Origin: Microgenomates group bacterium
Lineage (GTDB): Bacteria; Patescibacteriota; Microgenomatia; UBA12405
NCBI GenBank assembly: GCA_049303675.1
Contig: JBAQNJ010000001.1
Span: 71,494-135,493, forward strand
DNA: 64,000 nt
Reading direction: 5' to 3'
Part shown: piece after piece, positions 627-62,122 of the stretch
How positions within the stretch are numbered: position 1 is the first letter of the stretch
How the letters are laid out: the number at the start of each line of letters is the position of its first letter
Notes under the pieces: generated by a model
Told to the model about the DNA's origin: nothing
Databases searched by the model: none
What the model saw: only the letters and a program-made list of their open reading frames with translations
Position numbers and translations under genes: made by a program

Positions 627-1031
627 ATGCGCTCCTCAATTTATATAATTATATTTCTCATTCTCGCCCTAATCGGCTCCCTCACCCTAGTTCTGCGCAG
701 TACCATATTTGTCGGCAAGGCCACCGGTAGTGCTTCTGTCGCCTCCGGCAACTCCTATCTCTTTGCTTCTCCTCTCCAAGCCAAAGCTGATGGTAGAGAA
801 ATGATTCGCATTACTGCCTTCCTCCTCGACGGTCGGGGAGTCGGTGTCGCCAACCAGACAGTTGATCTTCATACTTCCCCATCTGTCACCATCAAAACCA
901 TCCAAGCAATCACTGACGACAGTGGTAAAGCCGTTTTCGATATTTCCTCATCCCAAATTTCTCAAGTAACCATCTCCGCCAGCCACAACGGCCAAACCCT
1001 CCCCCAAACTGTCAAAGTCACATTTTATTAG
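627..1031 (+). CDS. Small secreted or membrane-anchored protein with a single bacterial Ig-like (Big_1/invasin-like) domain
   Basis: The N-terminus has a hydrophobic signal/TM segment, IYIIIFLILALIGSLTLVL. The Big_1-like pattern 'ASP..AKADG.E.IRITAF..D..G..VAN..V.........TD.SGKA.F...S...VTISA' follows. The protein ends in ..KVTFY and is paralogous to the gene at 6304..6750. Confidence 0.6.
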   Translation: MRSSIYIIIFLILALIGSLTLVLRSTIFVGKATGSASVASGNSYLFASPLQAKADGREMIRITAFLLDGRGVGVANQTVDLHTSPSVTIKTIQAITDDSGKAVFDISSSQISQVTISASHNGQTLPQTVKVTFY

Positions 1032-1070
1032 TATTGATCTCAGTTTTTCAGATCTCAGATATCCTCGTTT

Positions 1071-1662
1071 CAAACCCACCCACTCCAGTTTCACCGGAGC
1101 ACCCTCCTGTAATTTCAAGATTCCAATTTCATTCCAAACCCACCCGCCCTACGGGCACCCTCCCTTGACTAAGGGAGGGCTAAAAAGTTATGAAATTTCA
1201 GATATTCGAATATCTAACTGTTTAAATAAATTACTTTTTGTATTTTCTAAATCAAATAATACCTGTTCATTTTTGTATCTAATTGTTTTTATTCCTCTTT
1301 GGACTAAATATAAATCTCTAAAATGATCACTGTATTTTTTATTATCATGGGAATCACCATCAACTTCTATACACAGTAATAATTTTGAACAATAGAAATC
1401 TAAAATAAATTTTCCAATTGGTTTTTGTCGAGTGAATTTATAGTTTGTTTTTTGATAACTAAGTAATTTCCAAAATATTTTTTCTGCTTGGGTCGGATTT
1501 TTTCTATTATTTCGAGAAAGACATCTCAGTTCTTCTAAATATTTCAAGTTCCCCCGTCTGGTAATAACTTCTATTGGTGAAAAGTGTTTTATAAACTCAT
1601 TATAGCCCTCCCTTAGTCAAGGGAGGGTACTCCGACTTATGTCGGAGTGGGTGGGTTTAGAC
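1071..1662. mobile_element. MITE/REP-like cassette with inverted repeats of 'AAACCCACCC-[small hairpin]-ACCCTCCCTTGACTAAGGGAGGG' bracketing the DUF559 gene. No transposase is present.
   Basis: The left side carries aaacccacccactcc at 1073-1087, aaacccacccgccctacgggc at 1136-1156, and the perfect hairpin ccctcccttgactaagggaggg at 1158-1179. The right side, in reverse orientation, carries hairpin ccctcccttagtcaagggaggg at 1607-1627, hairpin ctccgac-ttat-gtcggag at 1630-1647, and ggagtgggtgggttt at 1644-1658, which is the reverse complement of the left end. Confidence 0.6.
1188..1547 (-). CDS. DUF559 domain protein (Vsr/PD-(D/E)xK endonuclease-like)
   Basis: The translation 'NPTQAEKIFWKLLSYQKTNYKFTRQKPIGKFILDFYCSKLLLCIEVDGDSHD' matches the DUF559 signature (E..LW..L......KFRRQ.PIG.YI.DF.C....L.IE.DG..H). 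The gene is flanked by inverted repeats. Confidence 0.75.
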   Translation of the reverse strand: MKYLEELRCLSRNNRKNPTQAEKIFWKLLSYQKTNYKFTRQKPIGKFILDFYCSKLLLCIEVDGDSHDNKKYSDHFRDLYLVQRGIKTIRYKNEQVLFDLENTKSNLFKQLDIRISEIS

Positions 1663-1674
1663 TATAATTAATCT

Positions 1675-4600
1675 GTGACTCGCCTCTCCTATAAATCACT
1701 TTTTATTATCCTCGTCTTTTTACTCATTCCCATTTTATTTTTATTAAAAATAAATCAAAAAGGCAAAACAGTTTTGGCGGATTGGTGGAATGATAGTTGG
1801 ACCTATCGCCAAGCCATCAATATTTCGACCCACAGTGTCGGTGAAACCAATGTTTACATCACCACTACTATCAATATTGGCACCACCACCAAAGCCCAAA
1901 CCGACGACGGTGATTTTCGTTTTACTACTACCTCCGGCCAACTATTAGACTATTACATATCCTCGGGCGCTGGCACTACAGCCCCTACTTTTCATGTTCT
2001 TATCGATTCTTACCCTGCAGGAGCTCAAACTGTTTATGCCTATTATGGCAATCCCAGCGCCACTAACGGTTTTTCTGCCTCCGATTTTACCACTGCCGCC
2101 AACAATTCCACCATTAGCTCATATTCTACCGAAGAAACCGGAGGAAGTCCCGTCGCCTGGTGGAAATTTGATGAAGGGGTGGGGACAAGTGCCTTCGATT
2201 CTAGTCCCAACCAATTAAATGCTCGACTTTCCGGCTCAACCTTACCCACTTGGACATCTGAAGATCAATGTCTTAGTGGTAAATGCCTTTACTCGTCCGG
2301 TGTTGGTTATATTACTTCTGCCAACAGTTCGGTCAATAATTTTGGTACCAACAGCTTCACCGTCAGCGTTTGGATTAAGCCCCAAGATTTTACCTATCCC
2401 AAAACATCTTTTGCTTTTTTGAAAGGCAATGCACCATACATTCTTGGACCAACACGCGCCGGGTGGTCAATCGCTGATGGTTACACCGCCAGTGGTGCCG
2501 CCATCGTCATTAATGACGGTACCAGTATGGTCAGCACCACCTTAACTTTTAATTCCAGTTCCCGACCTACCGATTTTATTAATAAATGGACCCATTTAAC
2601 TTATGTTTTTAATCGCACTACCAATCTTGTTTATGCCTATGTCAATGGTGTGCAACAAAACAACACCGTTAATATTGCTTCAGTTACTGGATCAATCAGT
2701 AACACCTCTCCGCTCTACGTTGGTTACGGTACTGGCTGGACCTACAAAGGTTTTTTTGACGACGTTCGTCTCTACCCCTACGCCCGCACCGCTACCCAAA
2801 TAAAACAAGATTATAATGCTGGTGTTGCCAATATGGGCGGACAACAAATTAACAAATCATCATCTGACGGTCTGGTCGGTTATTGGAAATTCGATGAAGG
2901 TGTCGGCACCACATCTGCCGATTCATCGGGTAATTCTAATCTCACTACCTTCGGCACCGGCTCTTCCTCACCCGGCTGGATTGGTGGAAAATTTGGTGTT
3001 GGAACAAGCTTCGGAGGTATCAACAAAGTTGACGTTGGATCTGCAAATTCACTAAACATAGTTGGCGACATGACACTATCAATTTGGGTAAACCCAAAAA
3101 ATGCAAGTGGATGGGAAGGTCTCGCTTCAAAATGGGGAGATTCATGGGCTTGGGCACTAGATACAGCTACACATCGTAATGCGTTATACATCAATGGTTG
3201 GAATTACAGCAACTCAAGTATTCCTGCAAACCAATGGAGCCATCTTGCAGTTGTTTACAAAGATTCTGACAATAAAGTATATTTTTATTTAAATGGAGTA
3301 CCAGATGGGACATCAACTCAGTTATCAAACCAAGGCACTTCTGGTATTGTTACTCTTGGATATTGGGGCAATAACTATTTTTATTCTGGACTATTAGACG
3401 AAGTCCGCATCTACAATAAAGCCCTAAATCCCACCGAAATAAAGGCATTATATGAATATGCCCCCGGGCCAGTTGGCTATTGGAAATTCGATGAAGGTGT
3501 CGGTTCTACTGTCTTTGACTCAAGTGGTAATTCAGGCAACGGTGGATGGCAAGGTACCCTAGGAAATCAATGGGCTTCTGGAAAAATCGGCAAAGCCGGA
3601 AATTTTAATGGTAGTAATAACTACCTAAATTTAGGCACTAACCTCGGTAATTATACCGACAATTTTACAGTTTCCTCTTGGATTAAAACTGGTACTAATA
3701 ACGTTCGTATTCTTGGTCGACGGGACACACCTAGCGGCACTCAATATGATTTATATCTTCAAAGCACTACTGGCAAAGCAGCTTTTTTTGATGGCACAAC
3801 CCAATATGCCGGAACATCTAATCTAGCCAATAATCAGTGGCATTTTGTGTCTTGGGTTTTCAATGGCGCTAATTCTAAAATCTATGTTGACGGTATTGCT
3901 GAAGCCACTTTTACAGTCTCCACTACCTCAAAAAATATTAGCACTATCATTGGTGGCTGGGACAATGGAGTCAGTGGACTTTTTAATGGTCTTATGGATG
4001 ACCTTAAAATTTACAACTATGCCCGTACTCCAGAACAAATAATTCAAGATATGTCCGCCAGCGGAGGATCCGCCTTTGGTGGAGGCAACAAATTTGCTTC
4101 ACCTATTGTCTGGTACAAATTTGACGAAGGTTATGGAACTGTCGCCAACAATTCTGGTATCGGTGGAACTATCAACGGCACCCTTAGAACGGGCTCCTCC
4201 TCCCCCACTTGGGTCTCCGGCAAAATCAACAAAGGTTTAAGCTTTGATGGAAGCAATGATTTAATATCAGTAGCCGATAACGCATCTCTAAATACAACCC
4301 AAGATTACAGTATTTCCATGTGGATATATAACCAAGCTGGATCAGCAAATTATCCTACTCTGATAAATCGAGCCTCACAATCGGGAGTTAATGGATTTTT
4401 TTGGATATATACCACCGGAACTAGTGAAACCGATTTAAACTTTCAATATGCCAACGGCAGCAACTATGTTACAGAATTGTTTTCTGGCGCACTTCGACAA
4501 AATGTTTGGGACCATATCAATTTTACATTCAACAATACCACCAAAGAATTAAAATTATACGTCAACGGAAAACAGTTTAGCACCACCAGAACTCTCACAA

Positions 4601-6192
4601 CACCTCTTCCTGTTGATGATGGAATATTATATTTTGGTTCTTATCAAACCAATCCAAATATTTATGCCTTTAAAGGCATAATAGACGAATTTAAACTATA
4701 TAATTATGCCCTAAGTTCGGACGAAATTAAACAAGATTACAACCAAGGCGCCGCCTTTGTTTTTGGTAATTCCTCTCAAACCATCGGTGGTACCACCACC
4801 TCCCTCGACTATTGCATCCCCGGTGACACCTCCCCTTGCGCCGCTCCCATTGCCGAATATAAATTCGACGAAGGTGTAGGCACTACCGCCTTTGATACTA
4901 GTAGTAATAATTGGCCACTTCCCCTAGGCGTCAATACTTCCTCACCTTCATGGACAATTGGCAAAGTCGGTAAAGCACTCTATTTTAATGGTGATGATTA
5001 TGTTGGATATAATGATAATGGAACTATTGCAAGTGATACTGGACCCGTAACCATTAATGCCTGGGTTAAAACTACCTCGAATCAACAAGGTGGTATTGTC
5101 TCCCGATACGGAAATTCGAGCACTTGGACATATAGCCTTTACATGGATTCAAACGGCAAAGCAAACTTTAATCGATCAGCCTCTACTCCCTGGTCAACAA
5201 CCGTAACCAGTAGTCAATCCATCAACAATAACAATTGGAATTTTATCACTGCCAAATACGACGGTATTTCAATGCAGTTATATATTAATAGCATCGCAGA
5301 TAACTCTCTACCGGAAACCCGCAATTCTCAAACACCTGGTCCGTGGTCATTTTGTATCGGCAGTGAACATTATGTATGTTCCAGTACCAATTACCACGGT
5401 CACTTTACTGGTTCTATCGATCAAGTTCGTATCTACAACTACGCCCGCACCCCCGCCCAAATTGCCTACGACTATAACAAAGGCGGTCCAGTTGGATACT
5501 GGAAATTTGATGAATGTCAAGGAATTGTGGCACACAATTCCGCAGACCTCGCCGCAGGCGGGTCAAGTCTTGACGGCATAATCGCCATTGGTGCCAATGG
5601 CACTCAAAATTCCCTCGGCACTTGTCAAGTCGGCACTTCCGCCGCTTGGACCTCTGGCGCCACTGGAAAAATAAATAGTAGTCTCAATTTCGACGGCACC
5701 GATGATTATGTCCAAATCGGAACCTCAAACCCCGTTACCGGTTCAAGTCCATTCACTTTGGCTAGTTGGTTAAAAGTAGGCACCCATTCCAACTATGGCC
5801 TTGCTTTTTATATTGGCGGCGCCACTTCCGGCCAATCCGCCTGGCTTGGTTGGACAACTAGCGTCCAACAAGGTACATCAAATTCAATTGGTGGAGGTTT
5901 TTACGGCACTAATTATGGATCAGGGATAACTGATAATAATTGGCACCACGTAGTTTTGACCTATGCTGGTGGTACAGGAGCTGCAGTTTATCTTTATGTT
6001 GATGGAATTCAAAAAGTCTCTACCACCTACACTGCCAGTTTAGCTGCGACTTCAATAATGATGGGTAAAGCTAATACCGGCACTGCCTATTGGTATAACG
6101 GGCAACTTGACGATGCTCGTGTCTACAATTATGCTCTCACTGCCACTCAAGTCAAAACCCTCTACAACGGCGGCGCCATAAACTTTAGATAG
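1675..6192 (+). CDS. Membrane-anchored giant lectin-like surface protein: N-terminal TM, then a DUF2341-like domain, then six tandem LamG (Laminin_G_3/concanavalin A-like) domains
   Basis: The start codon is GTG. The N-terminal TM segment is LFIILVFLLIPILFLL. The DUF2341-like stretch reads 'W.YR..INI...DGDFRFT..SGQLLDYYI...........VYAYYGNPSA'. Six repeats carry the LamG_3 hallmarks '(V/I)xxWKFDEGxGTxxxDSSGN' ... 'W.H.....N.....LYVNG' ... '(F/L/I)D(D/E)(V/F)R(I/L)YNxAL(S/T)..(E/Q)I' at approximately aa 155, 400, 610, 830, 1060 and 1280. Confidence 0.85.
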   Translation: MTRLSYKSLFIILVFLLIPILFLLKINQKGKTVLADWWNDSWTYRQAINISTHSVGETNVYITTTINIGTTTKAQTDDGDFRFTTTSGQLLDYYISSGAGTTAPTFHVLIDSYPAGAQTVYAYYGNPSATNGFSASDFTTAANNSTISSYSTEETGGSPVAWWKFDEGVGTSAFDSSPNQLNARLSGSTLPTWTSEDQCLSGKCLYSSGVGYITSANSSVNNFGTNSFTVSVWIKPQDFTYPKTSFAFLKGNAPYILGPTRAGWSIADGYTASGAAIVINDGTSMVSTTLTFNSSSRPTDFINKWTHLTYVFNRTTNLVYAYVNGVQQNNTVNIASVTGSISNTSPLYVGYGTGWTYKGFFDDVRLYPYARTATQIKQDYNAGVANMGGQQINKSSSDGLVGYWKFDEGVGTTSADSSGNSNLTTFGTGSSSPGWIGGKFGVGTSFGGINKVDVGSANSLNIVGDMTLSIWVNPKNASGWEGLASKWGDSWAWALDTATHRNALYINGWNYSNSSIPANQWSHLAVVYKDSDNKVYFYLNGVPDGTSTQLSNQGTSGIVTLGYWGNNYFYSGLLDEVRIYNKALNPTEIKALYEYAPGPVGYWKFDEGVGSTVFDSSGNSGNGGWQGTLGNQWASGKIGKAGNFNGSNNYLNLGTNLGNYTDNFTVSSWIKTGTNNVRILGRRDTPSGTQYDLYLQSTTGKAAFFDGTTQYAGTSNLANNQWHFVSWVFNGANSKIYVDGIAEATFTVSTTSKNISTIIGGWDNGVSGLFNGLMDDLKIYNYARTPEQIIQDMSASGGSAFGGGNKFASPIVWYKFDEGYGTVANNSGIGGTINGTLRTGSSSPTWVSGKINKGLSFDGSNDLISVADNASLNTTQDYSISMWIYNQAGSANYPTLINRASQSGVNGFFWIYTTGTSETDLNFQYANGSNYVTELFSGALRQNVWDHINFTFNNTTKELKLYVNGKQFSTTRTLTTPLPVDDGILYFGSYQTNPNIYAFKGIIDEFKLYNYALSSDEIKQDYNQGAAFVFGNSSQTIGGTTTSLDYCIPGDTSPCAAPIAEYKFDEGVGTTAFDTSSNNWPLPLGVNTSSPSWTIGKVGKALYFNGDDYVGYNDNGTIASDTGPVTINAWVKTTSNQQGGIVSRYGNSSTWTYSLYMDSNGKANFNRSASTPWSTTVTSSQSINNNNWNFITAKYDGISMQLYINSIADNSLPETRNSQTPGPWSFCIGSEHYVCSSTNYHGHFTGSIDQVRIYNYARTPAQIAYDYNKGGPVGYWKFDECQGIVAHNSADLAAGGSSLDGIIAIGANGTQNSLGTCQVGTSAAWTSGATGKINSSLNFDGTDDYVQIGTSNPVTGSSPFTLASWLKVGTHSNYGLAFYIGGATSGQSAWLGWTTSVQQGTSNSIGGGFYGTNYGSGITDNNWHHVVLTYAGGTGAAVYLYVDGIQKVSTTYTASLAATSIMMGKANTGTAYWYNGQLDDARVYNYALTATQVKTLYNGGAINFR

Positions 6193-6303
6193 GCTTAGTT
6201 TCCATTAAATATTATCAAAAAAACAAGCTATCACTCATCACCAATATCTGCCAATATATCTATCCCCAATATATCAATTACAACTTTACTAGCTCAAATA
6301 AAA

Positions 6304-6750
6304 CTAATTTCTAAAAGTTACCTTAATCGTTTTGTTCAACGCCGTCCCCTCCACCACTCCTGTTAACTCAAATGTCCCTTCCTTGTTTGATTTAATGGCA
6401 AATGACACCTTACCATCAGTATTGGTCGTCGCTACCGCTGGAATAATATCCTCCATTCCTTCCAACATAACCTGCTTATTGGGAACTCCCTTGCTATTCT
6501 TATCCAAGATAAAGACATTCACAATACAATCATCTGTGCCATTAGCCTTGGCCAATATCTTCTGGCCCAAGATAGTTGAATCGCCCAGAGATACCATAGT
6601 GGCGGGTGCCGCCTTCGTCAGCGTAATCAAAGCTCTTGGCACCACGTAAGCCGCCATAAATACAATAAAGACGATTGCTACTACAATTCCCCCAACCTTT
6701 AGATACAAACCAGTGTTTGAATTCATAAAATATGATACCACAAAAGTCAA
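6304..6750 (-). CDS. Small membrane-anchored Big_1-like Ig-domain protein, paralogous to the gene at 627..1031
   Basis: It has an N-terminal TM segment (IVVAIVFIVFMAAYVV) followed by a single Ig-like domain, and ends in ..KTIKVTFRN just as 627..1031 ends in ..TVKVTFY. It lies convergent with the LamG gene. Confidence 0.6.
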   Translation of the reverse strand: MTFVVSYFMNSNTGLYLKVGGIVVAIVFIVFMAAYVVPRALITLTKAAPATMVSLGDSTILGQKILAKANGTDDCIVNVFILDKNSKGVPNKQVMLEGMEDIIPAVATTNTDGKVSFAIKSNKEGTFELTGVVEGTALNKTIKVTFRN

Positions 6751-7387
6751 TTAACAGAAAAATACTATTATTGCTAATGAAAAAATAATTAATATTTTAC
6801 CGTTAATCAGCCAAAAATAAAATAATCAGGACCCATTCCCCTACTTCCTATTTCACCGTCTATGCTCACTCAATACTAACTATAACACATCAGTTAAACT
6901 CTATCCTAAATAGTCTATCTATATCATCAACTCCCTATCAAAATTAACAACCATAATTTACCTCAATATATCAAATTTTAGTCAAAATACTCCAATTTTA
7001 TCTATCAATTAGTATCATACTATCTTAACCGCACTTCTCCGCAAACAACTATAAATTTAACTATCTAGTTGGCTATTAATAGATATCTATAGCCATACAT
7101 TGATAGTAGAAAAATATTCGTGTAAACAATTGTGAAAGTTAACCGCAGCCACTATACGGGGATAAAACTATATCATCCATACTATCAAAATATATCAGTT
7201 TCTACCTATTTTTAGCCTGTTGACACTCTTTTCCTAATAGTAGATATTTAATATATTAATCATTCAGCTTGATAATTATGTATAAAAAATATAATTCCAA
7301 ACCTAATAATTTATCACCGCTTCTCGAACGGCTCGCCCCCCTTCTTATCGTCGCTGCGTCGTTTGTTTGGCTCTGGAGATAAATTTT

Positions 7388-7951
7388 ATGAACTATCTCC
7401 CCCAGTTTAAAATTTGGCTTGAGCAAAAGGGCTATTCCGACTCTACCAGCCGCAACTATCTCGCCGATCTGGGTAAGTATCTTGAATATATCAATCACCT
7501 TCCCCAACGTGTCTCGATGGACATCTCGTCAGATCCTGAGCCATCCGTTGGGCACATTTTGTCCGCTGACATCGTCGGGCTCTATGTATCCTACCTCACC
7601 GATAAAAACAACTCTTCTCGCTACTTAGCATCCCTCCGTCTGTTTTGCCAGTTTGCCCTCGATCAGCATCTGATAACTCAAAACCCATTTAAGTCAATTT
7701 ACCGTCCCCCTCGATCCCCTGAATTATCCGACCTGGTTACTCAATATGAAACCCACCTCCTCAAGCACAATACCCCTCCAGCCACTATTCGCAACTACAT
7801 CAATGACCTACACCAATATATCAGTTGGTTAGAATCAAAACCCACCCTACCCTCCCTTGAAAAGGGAGGCCAAACTTTTACTTCTTCCGTTACAAGCTCC
7901 CCTTCATCAAGGGGAGATGCCCAAAGGGCAGAGGGGTTTTTTGAATCTTAA
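7388..7951 (+). CDS. Tandem phage-integrase core-binding (N-terminal SAM-like) domains with no catalytic domain. This is most likely the true 5' end of the giant gene, separated from it by a 1-nt frameshift.
   Basis: The first repeat is 'FKIWLEQKGYSDSTSRNYLADLGKYLEYI ... YVSYLTDKNNSSRYLASLRLFCQFALDQHLITQNP', a complete XerD-like core-binding fold. A second copy begins at 'YETHLLKHNTPPATIRNYINDLHQYISWL' and continues in the giant-ORF frame as 'QRLSQYADYLKSQGLSDSSIRRKLSSLSSFQKYLVKKKLINSP'. The ORF track starts at TTG 7367, and the ATG at 7388 is preceded by GGAG. The ORF overlaps 7857..37634 in another frame. Confidence 0.55.
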   Translation: MNYLPQFKIWLEQKGYSDSTSRNYLADLGKYLEYINHLPQRVSMDISSDPEPSVGHILSADIVGLYVSYLTDKNNSSRYLASLRLFCQFALDQHLITQNPFKSIYRPPRSPELSDLVTQYETHLLKHNTPPATIRNYINDLHQYISWLESKPTLPSLEKGGQTFTSSVTSSPSSRGDAQRAEGFFES

Positions 7952-10900
7952 TTCTCAAATCAACCAGCAACGCTTGTCCCAATATGCAGACTACTTAAAA
8001 TCTCAGGGACTTTCTGATTCTTCCATTCGTCGCAAGCTCTCCTCCCTCTCTTCCTTCCAAAAATATTTGGTGAAGAAAAAATTAATTAATTCCCCTGTAC
8101 GGGCAGGTTTTATACCTGCCCCATCCGGGCAACCACAAGGATTGCCCCTACAACCACTAAAATCCAATAAATCATTCCTCCAAAACCACTTTTTCACAAA
8201 ATACCTCCTCGCTGCTTCGATATTAATCTTATTAGGCGGCCTCAGTTATACCCTATACACTCAGGTTTTCAATCGCGCCTCCAAAAACCTCGCTTATTCC
8301 TCTGCCTCTAGTCCCATTACCCCCAATCGAATTTTGTCGTTCCAAGGTCGTCTGACTGACTCCTCCGGAAATCCCATTTCTTCCTCCACCGCCACTGTCT
8401 TCAAACTCTTCAATTCTGGTACCGGTGGTACCGAGCTCTATACTTCCGGCGCCGGCAATAGTCAGGTAGTCGTCCCCGATGAAAATGGAATATTCTCAGT
8501 AGTTATTGGTCGAAGTCATGGTCTAGGTATCCCCGCCTCAGTTTTCTCAGAAAACGCTGATGTCTATCTCGAAATCACTGCCGGTGGGGAAACTATGAAT
8601 CCTCGCCAACAAATAGCTACCGTTGGCTATGCCCTCAACTCTGAAACATTGCAAGGACTACCACCATCTGCTAGCGGTATGAGCAATACAGTGCTAGTTA
8701 TTGATGGCTCTGGCAATCTAAACCTTGGTGAAACCTCCCCTTCAATCATTTCCACCTCAGGTACATTTGGACTCGAAGGTCAAGCTATGTTAATCAAGGC
8801 TAGCGATGGCTCTGGGGGTGATATTACTATCAATCCTGATGCCGCCGGCAAGCTCAAATTAATTACCGAGGGGGCCGGCACTACTGCTGCCGGTGGTTTT
8901 ATCGAAGCTACCAATGCCAATCTGGCCAGCGGCAATTTATTCTCTGGTCTAATTCGCAACGACAATCCCAATTATAATTTTCTCGATTTCTCTAATTACA
9001 ATATCGGCACCACCGCCATTGCTTCGCGCTTTTCAGTCACTGCCAACGGCACTGTCAATGTTGGTACTGGTATAACTACGCCAAAGATTACTATCTCTGT
9101 TGGTGCTTCCAGTAGTTATATTCTTCAGTCAGATGCCTTTGGCAATGCCAGCTGGGTTAACCCTGGATCCGCTGGTATTGGTACCAGCTATGATGCTGGT
9201 GCTGGGTTAACGAAAACAGGCAGTGTTTTTAGTCTCAATGTTGGCTATACCAACACTTGGACTGCACTCCAAAACTTCACCAATATCAACGTTGGTGGTA
9301 CCGCAATCCTCAACAATCTTTTTGCTACTGGTAATGTTGGTATTGGTACCACCGCCCCCACCTACAAGCTTGAATTAGTCGGTGGGGCCTCAATCTTCCG
9401 CATTGGTGATACTAATGGCAATACCTTAGTTGATATCAGTGAAACCAGTGCTCAATTTAATCTTCCCACAACATTTACCTCTACTGGTGATGTCAATATG
9501 GCCAATGATTTAAATTTCACCAATGCCACCGCATCTACTATCCACTCCGCCGCCCCGCTCTACCTCGAAGCCGGCGAATCGTTCAACTCATCTGATTTAA
9601 CTTTCAAAACCTTTAATTCTGGTAATCTCGTATTCGATACTGCTGGTTTTACCTCACTTCAAGCACAAAATTGGACCCTGGCTACCGGTACCACCAATTC
9701 TCTAAATATATCAAACGGCCTCATTTCCGTTGATACACTTAATTCTCGAGTCGGCATTGGCACCACCGCCCCCGGCTATACCCTCAGCGTCGGCGGCACC
9801 ACCTATACCAACAATCTCTTCACCTCCGGCAATGTCGGCATCGGAACAACAGGGCCAAGTGACAAATTACATATTGTAGATGCAACTGCACCAAACATAC
9901 GTTTCCAAATTCAAGGCAATGCAGGTTATTCACAAATTAAAGGCGGTAATGATTTATCTTTTTATACATATAACGCCGGAATTTTTGAAAGATTTAGAAT
10001 CGCCAATGACGGCAATGTTGGGATTGGAACGACTAGCCCTGCAACACTTCTAGAACTATCACATGCTACAACCCCAATACTTAGAGTCGGTAGAAATGAC
10101 ACATTAGTCGCAACAGGAGAAAGTCTTGGTTCTTTGGAATTTTATACAAACGATACTGGTCACGAAGGTGTTGTTGGTAAAATCGAGTCCATTGCTGTTG
10201 GCACAAATGCTCAAGCACATTTAGGATTCTTCACCGGTGGCATCGGCGAAGTTGGAAATCAAGCATTCTTTGAGAAAATGAGACTCACTTATGATGGCAG
10301 TCTCGGTATCGGCACCACTGCTCCATCCAAAAAACTCGATGTCGCCGGTGACATTAACTTAACTGGAACAATATTTTCAAACGGTACTTCCGGTACCTCC
10401 GGTCAAGTGTTAACCAGCACTGGCACTGGTCTAAATTGGGTCAACGCATCATCTGTCGGTGGTACATACGTCTTTGCCAACGGCCTCACCAACACTGGTA
10501 CTTTCGTCGGTCTCGGAGGCACTCTAACTCAAGACGTTCGCCTAAACATCGGCAATACCGAAGTCCTCTTTCTTAAAAATTCAAATGGATATATCGGTGT
10601 TGGGACAACAAATCCAACTTCCGCATTTCAAGTCTATTCTTTAGGTATTAACAATAGCTCTCAAATTGTCCCCGGCGCAGCCGCTGGTAACGTTGATGTC
10701 TCCGGTGGGCTGTGGAGAGTCGCCAATTTAGCCACTGGGAATCATAATGAAACACTTTCTTTTCAATCTGGCAGACAATACACTACCGCAAGCGGAACTA
10801 ACAACGCTATCACTATCAATCCCAGCGTAGTTCCTACTAGTGGCACCTTAGCAGTTTCTATATTCAATTTAGCTCCAACTATAAACCAAACAGGAGGTTC

Positions 10901-58262: not shown

Positions 58263-58338
58263 ATTTTAAACAATCTATCAAATTTTTGTTTTTCTGTTAA
58301 CTGTAACCTGTTAACCGTCAACTATTTAATTCCTCAAT

Positions 58339-58455
58339 TCCGGCCACGACTTATTTTCATAGCTCTTTGCAGAGCAACTATTGTCAGCGCTGAAACGTTT
58401 CACTTCTCTGTTCGGAATGGGAAAAGGTGGTTCCATCTCGCTCTAGTGACCGGAA
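58339..58455 (-). rRNA. rrf: 5S ribosomal RNA
   Basis: The reverse complement reads ...TTCCGGTCACTAGAGCGAGATGGAACCACCTTTTCCCATTCCGAACAGAGAAGTGAAACGTTTCAGCGCTGACAATAGTTG...GTGGCCGGAA. This matches the conserved 5S core (CCCAT(G/T)CCGAAC.CAGAAGTGAAAC). Confidence 0.85.
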
Positions 58456-58671
58456 TTCAAGAATCAAATTGTAAAAGAAAGTTTATTTAAATATATTCAA
58501 TCTTTCTTAAGTCTCCCTTGTCAAAGGGAGATTTAGAGGGATTGTAAATTGACTCCTAAATTGAGTTGCCTTGTCCTCCGTAGCTTTAGCGAAGGAGGAT
58601 CGAAATCCACTTCACCAAAACTACAAAAGACAAAAAAATATTGAGAAATTTTTGTTTAATCTTCTCTTTGG

Positions 58672-61845
<3,174 letters not shown>

Positions 61846-62122
61846 CAATATTCATCCCGACTTACGTCGGGATTTGACAACTCAATTTAGTCGTCAATTT
61901 ATATGGAAACAACCAATCTATTACTCATAGATCTCCAGTGACGGCAGTCGTTTCCATAATATATTTTTTAGAACGTTTTCCGGACAAAGGGAAAACGTCC
62001 CTTCTTTCTTTTTTCGATAGATTGTTAAAGTATGACCCCGATTTTCATCGGGACGAACCATATCTCTTTCTTTGCTCCTATCTTTGAAGATTGAAGTCTG
62101 AAGATTAATGACTGATTCTGTG

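Follow-up and report, generated by a model that had tools for sequence, protein, structure and literature searches.

RESULTS

A DUF559 gene between inverted repeat units

We have analyzed a stretch of 64,000 nt from a Patescibacteria genome (the window, to whose positions all coordinates refer), in which the gene of a DUF559 endonuclease lies between two inverted copies, or arms, of a short structured repeat, the whole cassette being lodged between a Big_1 gene and a LamG gene (Table 1). The comparisons presented here point to a systematic partnership between DUF559/YcjD genes and repeats of the BoxC/PIT/TM (triplex motif) class; the repeat class itself is already known, and it is the partnership that appears to be new.

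Table 1. Repeat units, insertion and DUF559 open reading frame (ORF) in the window
Feature	Position	Strand	Description
Insertion relative to orthologous empty sites	1032-1660		629 nt; between Big_1 stop TAG (1029-1031) and ACTATAATTAATCTGTG
Decayed older arm	1072-1110	+	AAACCCACCC-ACTCC..GGAG-CACCCTCCTGT; 3' half of main hairpin missing
Cassette arm distal to DUF559 gene start	1136-1180	+	AAACCCACCC-GCCCTACGGGC-ACCCTCCCTTGACTAAGGGAGGGC; triplex-motif unit, C-rich strand on +
DUF559 (YcjD-family, Vsr/EDxHD-fold) endonuclease ORF	1188-1592	-	134 codons from ATA 1590-1592, or 119 aa from TTG 1547
Cassette arm proximal to DUF559 gene start	1605-1658	-	AAACCCACCC-ACTCCGACATAAGTCGGAGT-ACCCTCCCTTGACTAAGGGAGGGC on minus strand; inverted partner of 1136-1180
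Gene-less two-armed element	7838-7940	+	Left arm about 7838-7870 (AAACCCACCC type), spacer, inverted right arm 7896-7940
Solo triplex-motif unit, third sequence type	58511-58542	+	GTCTCCCTT-GTCA-AAGGGAGA-TT-TAGAGGGAT; 23S-5S rRNA spacer

An initial annotation of this DNA had placed a unit at 1136-1179, its reverse complement at 1607-1658 and a partial copy at 1073-1087, which together bracket a minus-strand DUF559 gene (1188-1547) between Big_1 and LamG. All of these are present with slightly different limits: the units occupy 1136-1180 (+) and 1605-1658 (-), the partial copy is a decayed unit that reaches about 1110, and the gene matches DUF559 in Pfam (PF04480, E = 2.5e-25, 88.9 bits against a gathering cut-off of 20.6) in a frame that is open up to 1592. 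The overall plan of the unit is AAACCCACCC-(mini hairpin)-CCCTCCCTT-loop-AAGGGAGGG. On the sense strand of the DUF559 gene the proximal arm reads AAACCCACCC-[ACTCCGACATAAGTCGGAGT]-ACCCTCCCTT-GACT-AAGGGAGGGC and is followed by TATAAT (1599-1604), and the distal arm, which starts 8 nt past the stop codon, reads CCCTCCCTT-AGTC-AAGGGAGGG-T-[GCCCGTAGGGC]-GGGTGGGTTT; the mini hairpin ACTCCGACATAAGTCGGAGT of the former differs from GCCCTACGGGC of the latter. A repeat search of the window aligned the inverted arms over 29 nt at 97% complementarity and a further 15 nt at 100%. The 22-mer hairpin occurs twice, with no copy expected from 100 shuffles, while AAACCCACCC alone is not above chance in the window (8 observed, 6.4 expected). 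Folded as single-stranded DNA, the distal and proximal arms reach -14.3 kcal/mol (z = -4.4 against shuffles) and -18.7 kcal/mol (z = -7.6), respectively, in ViennaRNA, which models hairpins only and no triplex.

Two insertions relative to orthologous empty sites

Three Shapirobacteria relatives (L206, L211 and L212), whose Big_1 is about 67% identical, keep the gene order of the window: three unnamed genes, Big_1, LamG, a reversed Big_1, the Phage_int_SAM ORF and the giant gene. In these genomes the Big_1 stop and the LamG GTG start stand just 13 nt apart (TAGACTATAATTAATTGTG), and hence 629 nt have been inserted in the window, where the GTG stands at 1675. A 4-nt direct repeat, TTAG, is found at both insert borders (1028-1031 and 1657-1660). 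The cassette proper measures ~520 bp, with the two inverted arms as its ends and DUF559 as its only gene; as judged from the alignments, the insert is this cassette together with older decayed arms, placed into the 13-nt spacer. In the closest relative, L209 (Big_1 70% identical), Big_1 is likewise followed by decayed arms, an arm pair and a DUF559 gene, the latter pointing the opposite way, and the decayed arm of the window is homologous to the region left of the L209 cassette.

The second site lies upstream of the giant gene. The initial annotation had described a copy at 7838-7869, translated as KPTLPSLEKGG within the coding sequence 7388..7951, as an insertion into a coding linker of the giant gene, close upstream of a frameshift. 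The copy is present, in frame and so translated, but it is only the left arm of a longer element (7838-7940), and the coding sequence is a separate ORF ending at 7951. The right arm reads CTCCCCTT-CATC-AAGGGGAG-[GCCCAAAGGGC]-GAGGGGTTTT, of the AAACCCCTC type, or AAAACCCCTC-[GCCCTTTGGGC]-CTCCCCTTGATGAAGGGGAG on the minus strand. Neither L211 nor L212 has an element at this position. Pairwise alignment with cheap gap extension, used because a MAFFT alignment of the junction misplaced the gap, shows ORF 7388-7951 to be longer at its 3' end by a net 93 nt, with the reading frame preserved; the frame of this upstream ORF stays open across the element until a stop is regained, and the ancestral TTG start of the giant gene stands immediately after the element, at 7941. 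L211 and L212 already show an out-of-frame overlap between the end of the Phage_int_SAM ORF (stop after ...YINWLEAQNLGPK) and the beginning of the giant ORF (TTG), so that the presumed frameshift is an ancestral gene junction. The element at 7838-7940 is, by its structure and position, a gene-less two-armed derivative of about 100 nt inserted at an ORF 3' end.

Relative to orthologous empty sites, both the Big_1/LamG junction and the 7838 site carry genuine insertions in these comparisons. In the empty-site comparison suggested in the initial annotation, L206, L211 and L212 lack the Big_1-LamG insert, and L211 and L212 the 7838 element. A search by exact protein identity returned the same strain only; the empty sites came from homologue searches.

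The repeat has the BoxC/PIT/TM triplex architecture

On the G-rich strand the blocks follow one another as a pyrimidine arm (CCCTCCCTT), a loop, a purine arm (AAGGGAGGG), a second loop and a mirror purine arm (GGGTGGGTT). In the local unit the third block is a mirror of the second, in which G faces G and T faces A, and this third segment is present in four of four local arm units as well as in the solo unit at 58511-58542 (fold z = -3.5). A custom detector for the three-block architecture (8-nt stems, at most one mismatch) found five units in the window (1137-1180, 1605-1657, 7839-7870, 7896-7938 and 58511-58542), compared with 0-1 in block-shuffled windows. Among 99 arms we counted 32 different 8-nt purine-arm sequences, each of which keeps a matching third segment. 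The element at 7838-7940 joins an arm of the AAACCCACCC type to one of the AAACCCCTC type in an inverted pair.

The earliest name of these repeats was BoxC, followed by PIT elements and eventually by triplex motifs (TM; TMECO in Escherichia coli; see also Hoyne and Maher 2000, as cited by Holder et al., PMC4666352). Holder et al. (2015; PMC4666352) defined the TMECO consensus CCCTCNCCCN3-6GGGNGAGGGN3GGGNGAGGG, found the isolated strand to form a very stable purine-motif triplex, and mapped 23 copies in MG1655 and 3610 across 262 proteobacterial genomes; five MG1655 loci hold inverted pairs, always combining two sequence types, and TMECO loci, of which K-12 has 18, are unusually rearranged between strains. 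Salmonella reportedly lacks TMECO. The local arms (CCCTCCCTT / AAGGGAGGG / GGGTGGGTT, second loop 1-21 nt) do not match this consensus and are therefore a sequence variant rather than TMECO proper; by architecture the repeat is a Patescibacteria variant of the BoxC/PIT/TM repeats. The view of a mobile repeat family with two insertions accordingly holds as far as the interspersed copies and the empty sites in orthologues are concerned, but not as a new REP- or MITE-like family. Rfam gave no match at E <= 1 for positions 900-8300. We also considered a G-quadruplex (G4), since GGGAGGG-TA-GGGTGGG makes a four-tract G4, and rejected it: other DUF559-flanking arm families have only 2-3 G tracts, the mirror/triplex architecture is the conserved feature, and nuclear magnetic resonance excluded a G4 for TMECO (PMC4666352).

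An exact-pattern scan with one genome per species returned at least 119 motif loci (L004-L122), with ~0.01 chance matches expected from pattern length and collection size, in Patescibacteria, Melainabacteria, Bacteroidota, Alpha- and Gammaproteobacteria, Chloroflexota, Planctomycetota, Paenibacillus and others. Among the 119 motif loci listed, 27% of unit midpoints fall in long ORFs, which make up 80% of the sequence, and 18 C>G unit pairs have gaps of 7-93 nt. The same loci hold 41 "double" elements, in which a single hairpin has a third block on both sides and the triplex architecture is hence possible on either strand; they are the commonest form in some lineages. A phage origin was rejected, the motif having no match in 2.9 million viral contigs, where only two weak DUF559 relatives were found.

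DUF559 genes are regularly bracketed by triplex motifs

A metagenome scan with a DUF559 alignment yielded 80 loci, of which 70 were examined with the detector and 73 by inverted-flank alignment. Triplex motifs lie on both sides of the DUF559 gene at 58 of the 70 loci and on at least one side at 67, mostly in C orientation upstream (54) and in G orientation downstream (61). Within 130 nt of the gene ends the unit density is 6.2 per kb, as opposed to 0.116 per kb elsewhere, a 54-fold local enrichment. The flanks follow the same plan nearly everywhere: outer ends (T)TAAAYCC, often a mini hairpin, a main hairpin abutting the start codon, and an inverted copy after or overlapping the stop codon. 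Arm sequence varies between loci and matches within a locus (inverted alignment score at least 40 in 44 of 73 loci, at most 31 in shuffled controls), and it co-varies with the DUF559 gene lineage. The reverse comparison agrees: among the 119 motif loci listed, all 11 DUF559 ORFs (from Saprospiraceae, Muribaculaceae, Melioribacteraceae, an alphaproteobacterium and the Candidate Phyla Radiation, CPR) have a unit within 150 nt, compared with 15% of similar-sized background ORFs. The gene had been seen in the initial annotation as an occasionally captured nuclease; the two-sided bracket at 58 of 70 homologous loci argues that DUF559 is regular content of the cassette and not an occasional passenger.

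Cassettes that are 85-87% identical occur in unrelated contexts, where their homology stops at the outer arm ends (L156/L171, L136/L137 and L153/L154). Orthologous loci also show better conservation of the cassette than of its coding flanks: L182 and L184 are 98-100% identical as far as the outer limit of the downstream arm and 76-90% past it. Moreover, the cassette has opposite orientations at a shared junction in L169 versus L179, L166 versus L196 and the window versus L209. In these alignments the cassette behaves as a discrete unit with sharp boundaries, and its orientation flips.

We favor, at somewhat better than even chances, the reading that the DUF559 nuclease is the cognate enzyme of the triplex repeats and that host repair copies, flips or deletes the cassette. 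It is unlikely that the repeats are instead self-standing structural or recombinogenic sequences, spread by another host process or by slippage and recombination, which the DUF559 gene merely adjoins because both share permissive or unstable intergenic spots or because a gene is captured now and then, as the initial annotation had it. That reading would account for the ~90% of units in the listed genome loci that have no DUF559 gene within 150 nt, for the several nested decayed arms in intergenic regions of the window and L209, for the unstable loci without a mobility gene described by Holder et al. (PMC4666352), and for the about 12 units kept by E. coli O157 strains that lack ycjD. It does not predict the two-sided, inverted placement of units at 83% of the 70 DUF559 loci, where their orientation and their spacing from the start and stop codons are fixed and the stop codon itself is often included, nor that arms co-vary with the gene lineage and that cassette homology ends exactly with them. 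Among the 119 loci listed, whose neighbors were not clustered systematically, no second gene family is repeatedly found next to the units, and the 15% of background ORFs with a unit nearby also speaks against it.

The three opposite orientations could alternatively reflect a programmed inversion switch, in which the inverted arms serve as recombination sites and turn the DUF559 gene or a neighbor on and off; in agreement with this, "DUF559 domain-containing protein" is 14-fold enriched among predicted programmed-inversion targets, listed without further comment by Milman et al. (2023; PMC9881135). We regard such a switch as highly improbable, since no recombinase is encoded within 10 kb, the Phage_int_SAM ORFs having the N-terminal domain only, the flips seen are those between diverged genomes, and cassettes in unrelated contexts and dispersed solo units would be left unexplained.

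Arms and gene expression

The main-hairpin loop of the CPR DUF559 loci (L126-L205) is nearly always TTGAMA (TTGACA, TTGAAA or TTGACT) on the sense strand of the gene, whatever the stem, and a TATAAT-like box follows at a variable 9-17 nt, upstream of the start codon; TTGAMA is not found in E. coli TMECO loops. The arms might control or insulate the expression of a repair or defence nuclease that benefits the host, the unit moving only by ordinary horizontal transfer and solo units being relics, whether through a promoter in the loop, pairing of 5' and 3' untranslated regions, or a transcription or replication barrier. Besides the loop and box, inverted arms would make both mRNA ends complementary, and PADLOC reports weak matches of the DUF559 protein to DpdF and to a methyl-directed restriction enzyme. 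We nevertheless judge this decidedly unlikely. TTGACT and TATAAT are only 10 nt apart in the window, and a consensus scan found no promoter or terminator in either local arm, so that a promoter or terminator role of these arms was set aside; PIT elements had neither activity in E. coli, as reported in Holder et al. (PMC4666352). There are also far more solo and paired units than genes, and these units insert within rRNA spacers and at the 3' ends of coding sequences; enterobacterial genes have no upstream unit. None of the three alternatives alone explains the fixed bracket around the gene together with the cassettes in unrelated contexts.

The DUF559 protein

DUF559 is a large family of uncharacterised function that includes E. 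coli YcjD. The cassette ORF matches DUF559 and MTES_1575 only in Pfam. Its 120 closest homologues mostly start with MKYxAPEExRT, 15 codons upstream of the TTG in the window, where their ATG or GTG is replaced by ATA in an open frame; L209 also has ATA at this position (about 4676). The shared ATA is either a conserved non-canonical start or the mark of a shared decaying gene. The ORF has a GC content of 23-28%, compared with about 45% in the flanks, and across loci the ORF has 26.9% against 38.8% in flanks, being lower in 73 of 75 loci.

In the alignment of homologues E61, D63 and H67 are invariant and D78 is conserved, with an IEVDGDSHD stretch. The AlphaFold model (predicted local distance difference test, pLDDT, 89.6) has as best PDB match the uncharacterised 3hrl (sequence E = 2.7e-22), followed in Foldseek by the catalytic domain of I-Bth0305I (3r3p; E = 3.3e-4, TM-score 0.66/0.78), with Vsr itself lower. 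On this predicted structure, the closest functionally characterised fold is that of the homing endonuclease I-Bth0305I, and a survey of PD-(D/E)XK enzymes groups Vsr, DUF559 and the I-Bth0305I homing enzyme together (PMC3424549).

The link in E. coli and other enterobacteria

In E. coli K-12 the last codons of the DUF559 gene ycjD (b1289) form an inverted degenerate unit, downstream of which come a fragment of a second DUF559 3' end and then TMECO no. 9 (1,351,204-1,351,239), in G orientation on the sense strand. The fragment (L213, 5245-5396, between ycjD and TMECO no. 9) duplicates the ycjD 3' end (ETVLENIRQGLNR) between two repeat units and is apparently left over from a second DUF559 cassette. 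Another repeat of this locus, a perfect 17-nt inverted one that overlaps the ycjD start codon (TCACCTCATTCTGACAA / TTGTCAGAATGAGGTGA; L213, 5758-5802), is not of the triplex type.

YcjD homologues are encoded between yggW and yggN in Enterobacter asburiae, between an ABC binding-protein gene and a Dyp peroxidase gene in Klebsiella, and after yggW in Franconibacter, in each case with a TMECO-like unit fused to the last codons; the TGA stop lies in the hairpin loop in Enterobacter and Klebsiella. A further G-orientation unit follows downstream in these homologues, although in Franconibacter it comes from reading the sequence only, the detector finding the fused unit alone. Three independent short-read Enterobacter assemblies (L218, L219 and L220) break 5 nt past the DUF559 stop, presumably at the repeat pair.

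Among 5426 complete E. coli genomes, 3378 have ycjD, and the positive genomes correspond to phylogroups A, B1 and C (PMC12817139). In a spread sample of 60 genomes the median number of further repeat places was 17 with ycjD and 5 without (p = 6e-9), a difference that follows phylogroups.

Other features of the window

The rRNA operon occupies 58338-61844 on the minus strand, and its 23S match of 3202 nt, against a model of 2925 positions, implies ~280 nt of insertions. The solo unit at 58511-58542, lying in the 23S-5S spacer, would belong to the primary rRNA transcript. Two further hairpins, both perfect, lack the triplex plan: GGGCAGGTTTTATACCTGCCC at 8101-8121, inside the giant ORF, and ATCCCGACTTACGTCGGGAT at 61854-61873, just upstream of the 23S 5' end, whose stem resembles the mini hairpin at 1629-1648 of the proximal cassette arm.

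Phage_int_SAM-like N-terminal modules, but no recombinase catalytic domain, are found in both the giant ORF (about 9,900 aa) and its predecessor (7388-37634 together), an arrangement that L211 and L212 share. Positions 6750-7300, upstream of the Phage_int_SAM ORF, are AT-rich (27-30% GC) with a strong C-over-G skew and include a 34-nt imperfect palindrome at 7048-7107. The LamG protein gene (1675-6192) contains six internal repeats (family D1) that recur every 600-735 nt or so, and orthologue lengths of 1372, 1505 and 1751 aa suggest gain and loss of repeat units.

DISCUSSION

Our findings are consistent with a partnership in which the DUF559 nuclease would recognise or nick the arms, probably when they are folded as hairpin or triplex in single-stranded or supercoiled DNA; this action on the arms is the step that we infer. 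Host recombination and repair might then copy the cassette into other arm-bearing sites, by homing or gene conversion in which the arms supply the homology, or flip it between the inverted arms, while deletion of the gene would leave arm pairs and solo arms as non-autonomous copies. A wider version, in which DUF559/YcjD endonucleases are the cognate enzymes of BoxC/PIT/TM repeats across phyla and their Vsr-fold hydrolase reads folded hairpin or triplex DNA, is a real possibility that we put forward tentatively.

Several observations weigh against this proposal. A PD-(D/E)XK hydrolase is unable to transfer strands, so movement must rely on host repair, an assumed step, and Holder et al. (PMC4666352) detected no triplex in double-stranded DNA or in vivo. 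The ATA at the conserved start in the window and L209 means that the gene may be poorly expressed or decaying. The target-site duplication for which the initial annotation suggested looking amounts to the TTAG around the 629-nt insert, with nothing common or consistent at other cassette borders and loci. Flanking units are direct instead of inverted in some loci (L035 and L053), and enterobacterial DUF559 genes have units at the 3' end only. The many units without a DUF559 neighbor and those retained by O157 strains, set out above, belong here as well. Since the presence of ycjD follows phylogroups, its correlation with repeat copy number is only compatible with the model, and we do not rely on it.

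BoxC/PIT/TM repeats, familiar from E. coli since the 1990s, are present in hundreds of genomes. The study that treats them in the greatest detail offers no function and states explicitly that no mobility gene was found associated with them (PMC4666352). In the searchable literature, which includes few subscription journals, we found no paper that links a DUF559 or ycjD gene with a triplex repeat. The physical link gives the repeats and the DUF559 family each a candidate partner. If the partnership is real, it would explain how these repeats spread and why the genome is unstable where they lie; it could also explain the enrichment of DUF559 among predicted inversion targets (PMC9881135), the assembly breaks at DUF559 genes and the translated repeats at protein ends. 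The question can be tested in E. coli K-12, which has a single gene and 23 mapped repeat copies.

The element shares features with several known systems. With the BoxC/PIT/TM repeats it has in common the succession of C-rich arm, loop, G-rich arm, loop and mirror G-rich arm, which would give C.G*G and T.A*T triads, as well as occurrence as multi-copy, mostly intergenic G/C-rich islands, frequent inverted pairs of two sequence types, and loci that vary between related genomes. It differs in sequence (CCCTCCCTT..AAGGGAGGG..GGGTGGGTT here, CCCTCNCCC..GGGNGAGGG..GGGNGAGGG in TMECO), in a second loop of 1-21 nt, often with its own mini hairpin, instead of 3 nt, in its host, a Patescibacteria genome, and in the DUF559 link, which is absent from Holder et al. 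(PMC4666352).

EDxHD homing endonucleases, free-standing or intron-borne, such as I-Bth0305I have the same Vsr-like catalytic fold with conserved acidic and histidine residues, and in both cases related genomes differ in whether a given site holds the gene, which is better conserved than its flanks. The DUF559 gene, however, is intergenic (Big_1/LamG), without intron or intein and without interrupting a conserved host gene, and it is bounded by structured inverted repeats at many unrelated sites. Rickettsia palindromic elements are palindromic repeats inserted in frame into coding sequence and then translated; the insertion described here differs from them in lying at the extreme 3' end of an ORF, with a stop/start overlap, and in belonging to an unrelated repeat family.

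Like insertion sequences and miniature inverted-repeat transposable elements (MITEs), the cassette has terminal inverted repeats, of ~45-55 nt, around one gene, and there are gene-less two-armed derivatives of ~100 nt; unlike them, it has no DDE, serine or tyrosine transposase, DUF559 being the only ORF, and no consistent target-site duplication. The partnership would be analogous to that of REP (repetitive extragenic palindromic) sequences and REPINs with RAYT, the REPtrons (PMC3116915). The enzyme here is a PD-(D/E)XK Vsr-fold hydrolase and not a Y1 HUH (IS200/IS605-like) transposase, the repeat is a triplex motif with a third mirror segment and without a GTAG/CGTC head, and copy numbers appear lower. 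Yet in both systems one small nuclease-type gene stands between inverted short hairpin repeats, copies of that repeat are scattered through the genome, singly and as inverted doublets, and its sequence varies together with the gene lineage.

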